From Escherichia phage JLBYU40, in sequence record NC_105514.1: a stretch of 64,000 nt of DNA; one strand, 5' to 3'. A program made the position numbers and the translations under genes. The notes beneath the pieces are model-generated. The model was not told where the DNA came from. It saw only the letters and a list, made by a program, of their open reading frames with translations, and made no database searches. Shown here piece after piece: positions 16,946 through 64,000 of the stretch (position 1 is the stretch's first letter; the number at the start of each line of letters is the position of its first letter).

Positions 16946-16974
16946 TTGCTTTCAGGAAAATTTTTCTGTATAAT
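16946..16974 (+). promoter_or_regulatory. Strong early promoter TTGCTT-N17-TATAAT (PN25-like)
   Basis: aaaatttatttgctttcaggaaaatttttctgtataatagattcataaatttgagagagaggag; from memory this matches the classic T5 PN25 promoter. Confidence 0.8.
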
Positions 16975-57338: not shown

Positions 57339-58552
57339 TCTTTATCTCCCTCGGTGGAACCTTGAGGTCTACCACCTTCTTGACCAGATACACCTGTTGC
57401 AGAACCAGCAACGTTAGCAGGAATACGAATCCTATCCATCTGCTCATCATCTAAAGGTTCAAGGTTCAGCTCTAAACGAGCTTCGTTACCAGTCATAATA
57501 CCATTATTAACCAATGAGGTTAAATGTTTAGCCTCAGCTTCTTTATCTGGTGTTAATGCAGCTACCTCCTTAGTATTAGGGGTAATCTTATAACCAAAAA
57601 AGAAAGTAAGAGAACTAGTCAGTTTGTTCAGCATAGGAATGATAGTCATATAATAGAACAATTCGATGTTTGGTCGAATGTTCGCATTATTACCACCATC
57701 AAGCAGTACTTGCGGAACTCCAAAGGCTAGACAAATAGATTTATTAAATCCTTCGATGTCTTCCTTAAAGTCTAGATCTTTAAAAGAGGATATTTGGGAG
57801 TACGGTTTAGCTTTCATACCACCATCTAGAATCAGGACAGAAGACTGACCCGTACTAGGATTATAATCGAGTTGTAATTCTTCTTGTTTACGCTCTCGCA
57901 ATTTCTTGTTCAGGATTTCATCCGTCTCAAGAATAAGACCAATCACGGTTCCGTTATCTAGGAATTTCTCTTTAAAGTTAAGCATTTTAGAACGCTTTTC
58001 AAGAGAGTCAATAACAGTAGCAACACGAGATTGTCCAGAAATTTGAGAATTTGTGCCACACACGTAACTGTTATCCTTTATAAAGATAATCTCATCTACG
58101 CGATAGTCTATCTGATTATTAAATATAAATTTTTTGATAAACTTATTGGCATCTGCCTCGACCTGCATAAGAGCGGCCGGGACATGGTAAAGCGATGTGC
58201 CATCCCAATAGATGTATGCACAACCTTCAAAAAGTAGGTCAGTGACTACAAGTCTACGGAATGTGCTTATATCCATGAATGGATTAGGTCGTACATTTAA
58301 GAGAGTGTCTAGAGTCTTTGTTTTGACGCCATTAGCGTACGTAACAATATTATATTTATCTCCGACAGTATAAGAACACTCCGCCGCACTATCTATAACC
58401 ATATTGGCAGTTCGATTGAGAATCTCAATCTTGCTATAGGCTTGTCCAGTGGTAAAAGGCTTACGGTTAGTGCGATGACTAACTGGTTCCATGTCTCTTA
58501 TAATACGTTGACCCGGATTTAACTTTTCAGTAATCCAGCTTTTAAAACCCAT
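57335..58552 (-). CDS. Portal protein
   Basis: 405 aa; position between terminase and protease. Confidence 0.75.
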   Translation of the reverse strand: MGFKSWITEKLNPGQRIIRDMEPVSHRTNRKPFTTGQAYSKIEILNRTANMVIDSAAECSYTVGDKYNIVTYANGVKTKTLDTLLNVRPNPFMDISTFRRLVVTDLLFEGCAYIYWDGTSLYHVPAALMQVEADANKFIKKFIFNNQIDYRVDEIIFIKDNSYVCGTNSQISGQSRVATVIDSLEKRSKMLNFKEKFLDNGTVIGLILETDEILNKKLRERKQEELQLDYNPSTGQSSVLILDGGMKAKPYSQISSFKDLDFKEDIEGFNKSICLAFGVPQVLLDGGNNANIRPNIELFYYMTIIPMLNKLTSSLTFFFGYKITPNTKEVAALTPDKEAEAKHLTSLVNNGIMTGNEARLELNLEPLDDEQMDRIRIPANVAGSATGVSGQEGGRPQGSTEGDKE

Positions 58553-58989
58553 TATAAGAACCTTGCGAATCCTGATTTTGTTTCAGTCTTGACTTGTGTC
58601 TTTTCTTGAGGATTCTGTAATTTGTCTTTCTGCTTTTGAACCCACACTTTTTGCTTATTAGCAGAAAATAAAGGAGGTTCTTTTGTGTAAACCTTATGTA
58701 ATAATTGGTGATGGGGTACACAAAGGGTAACAGTGTCTTCTACTAGCTCATGCCTATATCGATCATAGAATGCCGTCCTATTTGAAAGGACTGTTTCTTC
58801 GTCAGTGAAATCCAATTGGAGTTCTTTAGCAAATTTTTTAACTAGTAGAGACACCGTATGGTAATGATGAAGCTCTAATTCTTCAGCACAACCGCAGATA
58901 GCACATTGAGAGTCTTTTTTATATTGACTTTTTATTCCGTCTCTCATAAGGGATATAGCATCGCGTTTATATTTTATATTGCTTGCCAT
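58552..58989 (-). CDS. HNH endonuclease (zinc-finger type) in the packaging module
   Basis: CAICGC...LELHHYH...LCVPHHQLLH; start at ATG 58989 after GAGGAG. Confidence 0.7.
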   Translation of the reverse strand: MASNIKYKRDAISLMRDGIKSQYKKDSQCAICGCAEELELHHYHTVSLLVKKFAKELQLDFTDEETVLSNRTAFYDRYRHELVEDTVTLCVPHHQLLHKVYTKEPPLFSANKQKVWVQKQKDKLQNPQEKTQVKTETKSGFARFL

Positions 58990-59103
58990 AGTGTTCTCCT
59001 CAACTGTATGAATATAGTATACATAATCGTATCGAATTTGTAAAGGGGATTTTAAAATACAGGAATGGGATACCAACTGAGTAGTATCCCATCCTATACT
59101 TAT

Positions 59104-60420: not shown

Positions 60421-60902
60421 TACTTCTTACCTCCAGTAGCTAGGGAAGTAATTAAGTCCATGTAGTTTTGATCCCCAGCTCCAGCAATAATGTTATTCTG
60501 GATATTAGTCTGATTAGCGGGAGCACGGACAGCAGCTTTAGCTTTCTCTAACTCTACCATCATCTTCATTTCTTCCATCTTCATTTTGTGTGCCTTCCAG
60601 AGAATATCCATAATATCTTGGTCAGAACCCATGCCAGTTTCTTCTAGCTCTTCTAGCTTACGCTTAATAACTTCATCTAGAACACCAAATAAACGATCTC
60701 TATTACGGAATCCACTCTCCATAAAAATATCATTTAAGTAGTTTTTAACTTCGCTACGATTCATAATATCTCGGAAAGCAATTTCAGACATTCCAAGACT
60801 ACGTGCTGCGGCAGGGACATCACTACCGCATTGCAGATACGCTTCAATCACATCCATCCCTTCAGGGGACATAAGATCTGGTACTAATACATCATTTGCC
60901 AT
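60420..60902 (-). CDS. Terminase small subunit (putative)
   Basis: 160 aa with HTH-like [16 protein letters not shown] and coiled-coil C-terminus; immediately upstream of the large subunit. Confidence 0.55.
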
Positions 60903-60912
60903 ATTTCCTCCT

Positions 60913-62670
60913 TTAGGTAAGGCGTTGAACTGTTACTCTTAATCTAGGCAGGAAAACTGCGCTACCCAAACTCACGTGCATAACTACTCCTAACTCTACG
61001 TTTCCGTTTCCTAGATTTTTAACAGTATATATAAAACTGTTTCTACTTAGAGCATTATTAGGCGTGTATCTAAAAGCAGATGTAGTATGAAAAGGTACTA
61101 GATAGCCCACAGGTAGCGTTAAAATTTGGTGGAATATTGCATCCCCTCCGCTATAGTTATATGCTCTTCTTCCTTGCACTTGAAACACCCCATTATTCCA
61201 TGTATTAGCTGGAACACCCGCACAATTAAGATTACCTGATATAACTTCAGTAGTAAGAATTACTGTAGCATTTCCGCCTGGTATACCTAGCCCAATAGTT
61301 GATAAACCAACGTATCTATCACCCGTTCCTGGGTAGCTAGGAGTAATATCATCTCCCATATAAGAACTACCTACATTTCCACCAAAAAGTCGCAGTGGAA
61401 CTGCTGATGGTCCCCAAACAACCCCATGCTCATTACCAATAGTATTATCGTTAGAGTTTACATACCACTGTTTACCTACTCCGAACTTATAAATGCTAAT
61501 CTGTGATTTAGCTCCACCATAGTCTACAGGAGACCATAATCCTCCATTACTAGACCCTACAAGTTCACACCTTGCAGTAGTATCCCCAAAAACTCCAGTG
61601 TACGCTGCGTTATTTCCGATGAATTCCATATCAGGACGATAACCTAAGTTACCAAAAGCATTCTGATTAATAAATTTATACCCGGTATTAGGGAGACTTA
61701 CCCCTTTAATTATGAAATTAGAAGGAGATATAAGAATATCAGAACCAGTAAAGGGATTACCTGAAATACTCATTACACCATTCGAATACCTTAAATTAAG
61801 AACATACCAAATAACCTTAGTAGGAGTTATATTATACCAATCCTGTAGTATTGTAGAGTCACCCGACTGGTTAGCTAGATTAGTAGTAGATCCCCTACAA
61901 ACAAATCTGTTCCCGCCGTCGTGGTACATAGTATTTACATTACCTGGGAGCCCTTGTCTAACTCCACCATATCCACGTATATTAGAATTGCAGACATAAA
62001 ACCAATCATGCCCTCTATGTGCTGCTCCTAGGGGCGACATCCATCCAGGATCCCAATAGTACGGGTTATTGCCATCTACAGGTACTGTGCTACTATTAGT
62101 AGGAAAACCTAATTGTGCAAAGGCTTCTGCAACAGTAACACCTACAGGAGCTCCCGCACCGGGCCTAACTATACCGTGGTAGGTACTATGTAACGTAGTA
62201 CCACCTGTGCCACTCCTAGAGATAGATTCTTCGTGCCCTATCGAGGGGTTATAATTATAAGTTCCAGATGCGAGGCTGTTACCAAATGCAAATCCACTGG
62301 TTTGAGAAACACTAGCAAAAGATCTAAAGGGATCAGCTTGAGTGGCAACTATAGTTTGACCAACTTTACTCTGAGTACCATTAAGAAAAGCTCTGTGAGT
62401 ACCATTAATTTCAATAGCAGTTAGTATAACTCTACCTGGGTCGTTGGATTTAATATTTATTATGTCAGAGGGCATCTGACATACAAAAAACCCATTCCCG
62501 GCATCACCTAATCCTGCCTCATAAGTACCATCAACTAGGACAAATGGCATATCACTATGAAAAATACTGTTGGCATTTGGACTATAGTGACGATTAATGT
62601 CACCCCCAGATTCAGTATTTAAAGATAGTACGGTCTTACCATCGCTATACTTTCCAGCGAAAAAACCCAT
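60913..62670 (-). CDS. Receptor-binding tail protein (pb5-like)
   Basis: 585 aa; divergent from the Llp-like lipoprotein gene, as in T5-like phages. Confidence 0.6.
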
Positions 62671-62695
62671 ATAATCTCCTATTATAAAAATGTAT

Positions 62696-62724
62696 TTGCT
62701 TTCATCCCTCTATTTTGCTATAAT
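62696..62724 (+). promoter_or_regulatory. Early-type promoter TTGCTT-N17-TATAAT for llp
   Basis: tatttgctttcatccctctattttgctataat. Confidence 0.7.
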
Positions 62725-62755
62725 ATATTCATAAAATAGAAATGGAGAGATAAAT

Positions 62756-63022
62756 ATGAAAAAGTTTGTAATTGCACTAGTTGCCACAGTTATGTTATCT
62801 GGTTGTGCACCTGCTCCCAAACCATTTTGTACGGGATTTGTAAAATCTTTTGGTGGTGCGGGAGAAGAACATTACGGTCTCAAGGTTCAAAAAGTTCGTA
62901 TTAAGGGAGATCGCTTTCCAGTAGTACAGCTCCGTACTAAGTTTGGGTGGTGGGATCTCAGTCAGTTTGACCTTAAATATGGTGATTGTAAATTTAAACT
63001 AGAGCAATCTAATTACTTGTAA
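62756..63022 (+). CDS. llp: Llp-like lipoprotein (receptor-blocking superinfection exclusion)
   Basis: Signal peptide plus lipobox LSGC (MKKFVIALVATVMLSGC), small Cys-containing mature domain, divergent from the receptor-binding gene. Confidence 0.65.
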   Translation: MKKFVIALVATVMLSGCAPAPKPFCTGFVKSFGGAGEEHYGLKVQKVRIKGDRFPVVQLRTKFGWWDLSQFDLKYGDCKFKLEQSNYL

Positions 63023-63198
63023 TTAGTATAAAGCAAAAAGACATCCAAGTAAACTAAATTTTTTATTTCTTGGACGGTATACTGGCAGAAAACACTATAT
63101 AAGAAAAGTAGAAGTCCTTCTAGGAGTTCACGGGCATGTTTGGTTATGCCCAAATTATAAAATATTTCAAAAATCACATTTATAGGAGCATGAAAGAT

Positions 63199-63327
63199 AT
63201 GTCAAACAAAAGAAAGAGCAGACGCGGAGAGGTGTATGATAGCTGGATTAATAGTTTTGGGTTCGGAACTATCCTATTCTTTATTTTCGTAGGTTTTTGG
63301 TTAGCAGCTATGGCGGGGTGGATTTAA
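63199..63327 (+). CDS. Small single-pass membrane protein (42 aa)
   Basis: Basic N-terminus then TM helix FGFGTILFFIFVGFWLAAMAGWI; ATG 63199 after AGGAG. Confidence 0.35.
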   Translation: MSNKRKSRRGEVYDSWINSFGFGTILFFIFVGFWLAAMAGWI

Positions 63328-63434
63328 TGGAATGGGTAATTATTGCATTACTAGGGATTGTGATTATCGGGCAATGTATTTTAGATAATCACTTAGCTAG
63401 AATTGAAACTTTATTACTGGAGAAGCGTAAATGA
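63327..63434 (+). CDS. Small single-pass membrane protein (35 aa; not in the ORF track)
   Basis: MEWVIIALLGIVIIGQCILDNHLARIETLLLEKRK; TAATG coupling to the previous ORF. Confidence 0.3.
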   Translation: MEWVIIALLGIVIIGQCILDNHLARIETLLLEKRK

Positions 63435-63625
63435 TGGAAGTAGTAGCTACATTAATAATAATACTAGTCTGGGCAACTTTCATTGTTTCTTATAACGCGT
63501 ATGTTCGCCTAAAAACTCTAGAAGCCCGGGTAAAACAACAACAATTTGCCATAGAAAAACTAGTAGAATTGCAACGTTGTGATAGTACCCGTATTCTGCA
63601 AATTGAGAGGGAATTAGATGTTTAG
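63431..63625 (+). CDS. Small membrane protein with coiled-coil tail (64 aa)
   Basis: TM helix VVATLIIILVWATFIV then heptad-like region; start overlaps the previous stop (TGATG). Confidence 0.4.
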   Translation: MMEVVATLIIILVWATFIVSYNAYVRLKTLEARVKQQQFAIEKLVELQRCDSTRILQIERELDV

Positions 63626-63863
63626 TATTATAGTTGCTTTTATTATCGGGGTAACCGCGGGAGTTTTCGGGACAACTGCGGCAATTAACAAGCATCGGGA
63701 ATATATCGCGGGGGTGACGCGGGAGATTGCGGAAAGGGAGCGGAAGTTTGACGAGAAACGTGCGGAGTTTGAGCGGGAGTGGTCGGATGGATCTCGGGCG
63801 TCGCGGAAGAGATTCCGTGAGTTCAGGCCAGAACACAGGTTTGATGACCCTTCTATGCGCTAA
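63618..63863 (+). CDS. Small membrane protein with Arg/Glu-rich tail (81 aa); 3' two-thirds GC-rich
   Basis: TM helix FSIIVAFIIGVTAGVFGTTAAI; codon usage switches to CGG/GCG/ACG-rich after about 63650. Confidence 0.35.
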   Translation: MFSIIVAFIIGVTAGVFGTTAAINKHREYIAGVTREIAERERKFDEKRAEFEREWSDGSRASRKRFREFRPEHRFDDPSMR

Positions 63864-64000
63864 TTTGACTTTTGCCAATTTCTTTGGATTACGTACGCGT
63901 GGGTGTGTCCAGTGGCCTCTCAGATGAGAATGAGTCTCATTACCGCCCGGTACTTAGCAGGCTAATAGTCACGGCATGTTATCATTACACACCGTGACTA

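Follow-up and report, generated by a model that had tools for sequence, protein, structure and literature searches.

Which outer-membrane receptor is recognized, and then blocked, by the divergent gene pair carried by Escherichia phage JLBYU40? A preliminary description, made from the sequence alone, had proposed a receptor-binding protein (RBP) and a receptor-blocking lipoprotein of the T5 type but held that the targeted transporter could not be read from the sequence. We analyzed the pair within a stretch of 64,000 nucleotides of this phage (NC_105514.1), hereafter the window, which is part of a Tequintavirus (T5-like) genome and was identical to no record in the phage collection. Our comparisons indicated, with a probability of roughly 0.93, that the locus is a BF23-type Tequintavirus host-recognition module targeting the vitamin B12 outer-membrane transporter BtuB. 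The 585-aa and 88-aa open reading frames were recovered as the divergent pair that had been described, with 85 bp between them (Table 1). DNA of the locus and its surroundings was 90-97% identical to that of more than 200 T5-like phage records, and the best DNA matches for the region were T5_ev219, VEc33, VSe12 and phiLLS. The RBP gene lies directly upstream of terS, whose start at 60902 adjoins the end of the RBP gene at 60913, and it heads a tightly packed block on the minus strand in the order RBP, terS, terL and portal. The same order, with llp diverging from the RBP gene, was found in T5, BF23, SPC35, DT571/2, phiR2-01 and IrisVonRoten (Bas32, MZ501075).

Table 1. Positions of the features of the divergent RBP/lipoprotein locus in the window.
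Feature	Position	Strand	Description
RBP gene	60913..62670	-	ORF with ATG start, 585 aa; pb5/Hrs family, BtuB clade, Bas32 subtype
Divergent control region between the RBP and lipoprotein genes	62671..62755		85 bp
RBP Shine-Dalgarno GGAG	62676..62679	-	5 nt upstream of the ATG; read from the sequence
Early-type llp promoter (putative)	62696..62724	+	-35 TTGCTT, 62696-62701; 17-nt spacer ending TGc (extended -10); -10 TATAAT, 62719-62724
Lipoprotein Shine-Dalgarno GGAG	62744..62747	+	Read from the sequence: GGAGAGATAAATATG
Lipoprotein gene	62756..63022	+	ORF with ATG start, 88 aa; BF23-type Llp, receptor-blocking (superinfection exclusion)

The whole 585-aa protein (residues 1-585) matched phrog_4815, annotated as 'receptor binding tail protein', with E=1.9e-273, and it matched the solved T5 pb5 (PDB 8b14, 8a8c) with E=3e-50; a Pfam search with the RBP gave no match. 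As is known for pb5, the protein is expected to sit at the tail tip and to bind a receptor protein. Matches to the RBP were found in 535 phage records, and about 100 records carried an RBP at least 90% identical to it. The protein was 99.0% identical to the RBP of Bas32, with six substitutions, and 98.5% identical to that of T5_ev219. Pairwise identity was 73% with DT571/2, 71% with SPC35, 67% with BF23 and 55% with phiR2-01, and was only 28-30% with T5 (FhuA), S124 (probable FepA type) and Klebsiella T5-like phages. By these levels of identity the RBP falls in the BtuB-binding clade and not in the FhuA or FepA clades. SPC35 is said to use BtuB, a result attributed to Kim and Ryu in 2011. Near-identical T5-like RBP sequences also turned up among records whose labels name Listeria and Corynebacterium phages; a BtuB-binding phage can hardly be expected in such hosts, and these records probably reflect contamination or mislabelling.

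The receptors of the relatives have been described in the literature. The RBPs of the T5-like subfamily form three clusters that are predictive of the receptor, and BtuB is listed as the terminal receptor of Bas32 in the S5 table of the same BASEL paper (PMC8594841). IrisVonRoten was also called BtuB-dependent elsewhere (PMC10373560), and BF23, DT57C/DT571/2 and phiR2-01 have been reported as BtuB phages (PMC4728585 for DT571/2 and BF23). For JLBYU40, the assignment of the RBP to BtuB is a prediction from these relatives, the RBP differing from that of Bas32 at six residues.

The N-terminus of the 88-aa lipoprotein reads MKKFVIALVATVMLSG followed by CAPAPKPF, with a signal peptide at residues 1-16 and a lipidated cysteine at position 17. 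The textbook lipobox noted earlier was confirmed as L-S-G-C at residues 14-17, and the score against Pfam LPAM_1 was 24.1 bits, which passes the gathering cut-off of 20. No Pfam family besides this lipid-attachment site was found. The residue that follows the lipidated cysteine (+2) governs the sorting of lipoproteins, and any residue other than Asp directs them to the outer membrane. Since the +2 residue is Ala, the protein is predicted to be sorted to the outer membrane. Among 12 lipoprotein homologues Cys17, Cys25 and Cys78 were invariant, and they aligned with the cysteines of T5 Llp. Cys25 and Cys78 appear to be the counterparts of the two cysteines that form the intramolecular disulphide of T5 Llp, which makes a disulphide in the present protein a putative one.

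The lipoprotein was 100% identical to the proteins of Bas32 and DT571/2, 98% identical to that of SPC35, and identical at 87 of 88 positions to the receptor-blocking protein (Llp) of BF23. The single change from BF23, T11A, sits in the signal peptide, and the mature lipoproteins of the window and BF23 are therefore identical. Lipoproteins of this type (at least 95% identical) occurred in about 180 phage records, and the RBP subtype in about 100, indicating that one blocker goes together with several diverged RBPs. DT57C and DT571/2 have identical llp genes. When llp of DT57C was cloned, DT57C, DT571/2 and BF23 plated more than 100-fold less well and T5 was unaffected; in addition, resistant hosts carried btuB-inactivating mutations (PMC4728585). 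Receptor blocking by BF23 Llp was shown by Mondigler et al. 2006, as cited in the same paper. Since these published assays were carried out on an identical protein, the function of this exact polypeptide is already experimentally established. The feature as such is already known, and near-identical phages have been tested at the bench. Contrary to the preliminary description, BtuB can thus be inferred with high confidence by comparison with the RBP of Bas32 and with Llp of DT571/2 and BF23.

We considered whether the module could instead target FhuA, the receptor of T5, FepA, that of H8, or yet another TonB-dependent transporter. The RBP is clearly homologous to the FhuA-binding pb5, the PHROG of the lipoprotein carries the name of Cor, a family in which the known members are FhuA blockers, and the loop-bearing residues 101-270 of the RBP are strongly diverged from BF23 and SPC35. 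However, the RBP shares 99% identity with its counterpart in a phage for which BtuB is listed, compared to 28-30% for the FhuA and FepA types, and the identical lipoprotein of DT57C/DT571/2 protected against BtuB phages and not against the FhuA-using T5 (PMC4728585). The identities of the RBP, together with the published specificity of the identical Llp, make FhuA or FepA a very unlikely receptor. Another reading would have the small open reading frame as a generic lipoprotein moron that lies beside the RBP gene by coincidence, which would fit a Pfam result limited to a lipid-attachment site and the recovery of only 11 protein clusters from a large protein database. On the other hand, the lipoprotein is a full-length member of phrog_1119, the identical protein was functionally tested (PMC4728585), and the divergent pairing with the RBP gene was kept in every T5-like genome inspected. 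Given this conserved synteny and the published assay, we regard a coincidental lipoprotein as excluded. The locus is hence read as a BtuB module of the BF23 type.

The relationship between the lipoproteins of the two receptor types was also analyzed. T5 and BF23 Llp have been described as non-homologous (PMC4728585), and BLASTP between the window lipoprotein and T5 Llp gave a weak match (E=1e-4, 30% over 67 aa), with a pairwise identity of about 27-30%. The profile of phrog_1119 (Cor/Llp superinfection exclusion) was matched end to end by the window lipoprotein (E=9.9e-26), BF23 Llp (E=1.8e-26) and T5 Llp (E=1.1e-19). Together with the matches of the RBP to phrog_4815 and T5 pb5, this match substantiated the receptor-binding/receptor-blocking pair of the T5 type that had been proposed. 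Since a PDB sequence search with the lipoprotein yielded chance-level matches to signal peptides and nothing else, a fold search was run. The best PDB match of the fold predicted by AF2, for which the input alignment was shallow (the 11 clusters from the large protein database), was T5 Llp. Since they share one profile family, a common cysteine pattern and the best fold match, BF23-type and T5-type Llp are best viewed as remote homologues, a minor point of value against their earlier description as non-homologous.

The Cor lipoproteins of T1, phi80, N15 and HK022 belong to phrog_1119 as does the window lipoprotein, and they are likewise small outer-membrane lipoproteins that confer superinfection exclusion by inactivating a TonB-dependent receptor. 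They differ in that they target FhuA and that their genes lie beside lambda-J-type tail-tip loci of unrelated siphoviruses. Sequence similarity between Cor and Llp has been described as low, the disulphide included (PNAS paper on FhuA-Llp). A FhuA-blocking Cor function of the window lipoprotein was considered and rejected.

Among the closest known systems are hrs/llp of BF23 (Mondigler et al. 1996, 2006; OR083247) and the pair of Bas32. With BF23 the locus shares the gene order, the divergence, the intergenic promoter region and the BtuB receptor, and the spacer and the flanking gene starts of the two phages were nearly identical (spacer alignment A1); the RBPs differ in length (585 aa in the window, 595 aa in BF23) as well as in sequence, with gaps near residues 250 and 540. 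Bas32 agrees with the window in the RBP, in its superinfection exclusion lipoprotein, in synteny and in the listed receptor, whereas the rest of the window best matched VEc33, T5_ev219 and vB_EcoS_MM-1 at about 94-97% DNA identity. The Hrs/Llp pair of DT57C/DT571/2 (PMC4728585) has the identical Llp, shown to exclude BF23-type phages and not T5, and the same receptor, but its RBP is 73% identical overall. Finally, T5 pb5 (oad) and Llp (PDB 8a8c, 8b14, 8a60) share with the present pair the architecture, the early-class hexamers, the protein families, the cysteine pattern and the best fold match for Llp. T5 differs in its use of FhuA, in the low identity of its RBP (about 30%) and Llp, and in the length of its RBP, which has 640 aa with extra insertions.

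Identity between the RBP and its relatives was unevenly distributed along the protein. Relative to SPC35, residues 1-100 were 99% identical and residues 101-270 were 50-54% identical. Relative to BF23, identity was 48% in residues 101-270 and 81-83% in residues 271-450, and relative to DT571/2 it was 80% in residues 101-180 and 60% in residues 181-270. Judged by this pattern of identities, the RBP is a recombination mosaic, and the same kind of mosaicism has already been reported for DT57C relative to BF23 (Golomidova et al. 2016, PMC4728585). The variable segment at residues 101-270 aligned with the tips of loops L1 (Gln115) and L2 (Phe170) of T5 pb5, which insert into the lumen of FhuA, and a second variable patch near residue 540 aligned with L4 of pb5. 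Since BF23 and SPC35 share just about 48-54% of residues 101-270 with the RBP, its contacts with BtuB may differ from theirs. We tentatively propose, as an idea that may well prove wrong, that the Bas32-type RBP docks on BtuB with a loop set quite unlike that of BF23 Hrs and that a sequence-identical lipoprotein excludes phages of both types. If this is true, the module family would offer a natural test of an Llp action that is independent of the RBP footprint. The test would bear on the idea that BtuB is a second TonB-dependent transporter put out of action by Llp-type proteins, through allostery from the periplasm to the surface.

In the mechanism that we propose, the RBP, a homologue of T5 pb5 and BF23 Hrs, would be made late with the packaging and head genes and placed at the end of the straight tail fibre, and its irreversible binding to BtuB would trigger the ejection of DNA. 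The 88-aa lipoprotein would be made early from its own promoter of the T5 early class. After export it would receive its lipid at Cys17, by which it would be held in the inner leaflet of the outer membrane. It would then bind the periplasmic face of BtuB, contacting plug and barrel, and shift the extracellular loops into a conformation to which RBPs cannot bind. RBPs of the BtuB clade could not use BtuB locked in this way, so that superinfecting phages would be excluded and progeny would not be lost to receptor that remains in cell debris. Like FhuA, BtuB is one of the TonB-dependent transporters and has their plug allostery. Such a periplasmic, allosteric block, modelled on the crystal structure of T5 Llp with FhuA, is the most likely mode of action. 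In that structure Llp binds plug and barrel from the periplasm and loops EL7 and EL8 are folded inward, and its authors argue that the mechanism should generalize to other TonB-dependent transporters (PNAS paper). Sequence searches of the PDB turned up neither a BF23-type Llp nor a BF23-type RBP, whether alone or with BtuB, and T5 Llp-FhuA is the one case in which the mechanism has been solved.

Alternatively, the lipoprotein could be flipped outward and occlude BtuB directly at the cell surface, with no part played by periplasmic allostery. Surface exposure was considered conceivable for receptors that lack allostery (PNAS paper), and the PDB sequence search returned no BtuB-Llp structure that would speak to the point. 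The FhuA-Llp crystal structure, however, shows periplasmic binding; the lipoprotein has its family, its cysteine pattern and its best fold match in common with T5 Llp; and BtuB, as a TonB-dependent transporter, has the plug allostery. Surface occlusion is accordingly disfavoured by the homology of the lipoprotein to T5 Llp, and we consider it improbable. Moreover, since one Llp serves RBPs that are about 50% different in the loop region, a block that acts on the receptor fits better than mimicry of the RBP footprint, in agreement with the periplasmic mode of action.

The control region was analyzed for signals that could account for early and late expression. At its -35 hexamer the putative llp promoter (Table 1) matches TTGACA at three of six positions, for which reason it was missed by a generic sigma-70 scan; across the window that scan showed no enrichment over shuffles (8 found, 10.4 expected). 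A dedicated search for TTGCT-N18-TATAAT, on the other hand, identified 10 copies in the 64-kb window as against 0.11 expected. Apart from the llp copy, all nine fall within 1-21 kb (between 17 and 20665), a region that we take as the early DNA-metabolism region since it encodes ribonucleotide reductases, DNA ligase and a replication origin-binding protein. One of the nine, at 16946-16974 on the plus strand, has the sequence TTGCTTTCAGGAAAATTTTTCTGTATAAT and is presumably the classic T5 PN25 promoter of expression vectors. Both hexamers of the llp promoter were invariant in the spacers of T5, BF23 and Bas32, despite the very different flanking coding sequences of T5, and CTCC on the plus strand, which represents the Shine-Dalgarno sequence of the RBP gene, was invariant in the window, BF23, T5 and Bas32 (spacer alignment A1). 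Given a motif class of the early region and invariant hexamers, 'early-type promoter' is a fair label. Of the early-type consensus promoter proposed in the preliminary description, the early class stood, and the word consensus is apt for the -10 and within the promoter class of the phage itself, but the -35 is not the E. coli consensus.

The element is a predicted promoter, and its class and context suggest that the lipoprotein is expressed early. Early expression of T5 Llp was published by Decker et al. 1994, as reported in a citing paper. Putative promoters are annotated in both directions in the syntenic spacer of the T5 record (AY692264), and an early and a late promoter are predicted in that of the BF23 record (OR083247). 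When the minus strand upstream of the RBP gene was searched for a late promoter, just one unvalidated TATAAT was found, immediately beside the ribosome-binding site. The RBP gene is probably late, as suggested by its place in the block with terS, terL and portal and by its homology to the virion protein pb5.

As a discovery the locus carries little weight, the window being from a T5-like phage with the commonest (BtuB) host-recognition module. It shows that the receptor can be annotated without experiments by comparison, and the use of one shared blocker across several diverged RBPs is a minor point of value. The two proteins could also serve for structural work on how BtuB is recognized and blocked.

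Some further observations were made around the locus. Directly 3' of the lipoprotein gene, and on the same strand, lie four small open reading frames (63136-63863, plus strand) of about 42, 35, 64 and 81 aa as annotated in relatives, each with one N-terminal hydrophobic helix. Their syntenic counterparts, T5p155-158, BF23_00172-175 and bas32_0193-0196, are annotated as hypothetical or membrane proteins. A terminator scan found no intrinsic terminator 3' of either the RBP or the lipoprotein gene, and since none was found between llp and the four small genes, these may be co-transcribed early. On the minus strand, an open reading frame at 58552-59076, between the large terminase and portal genes, carries HNH-type motifs (CxxC and HH). 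Its syntenic counterpart in BF23 is annotated as a nicking endonuclease, and the open reading frame may be linked to the single-strand nicks of T5-like virion DNA. The end of the window (63870-64000) lies a short way beyond the last of these small open reading frames, approximately where the right terminal repeat begins in BF23, SPC35 and T5, in which the repeat starts roughly 40 nt past the syntenic open reading frame.
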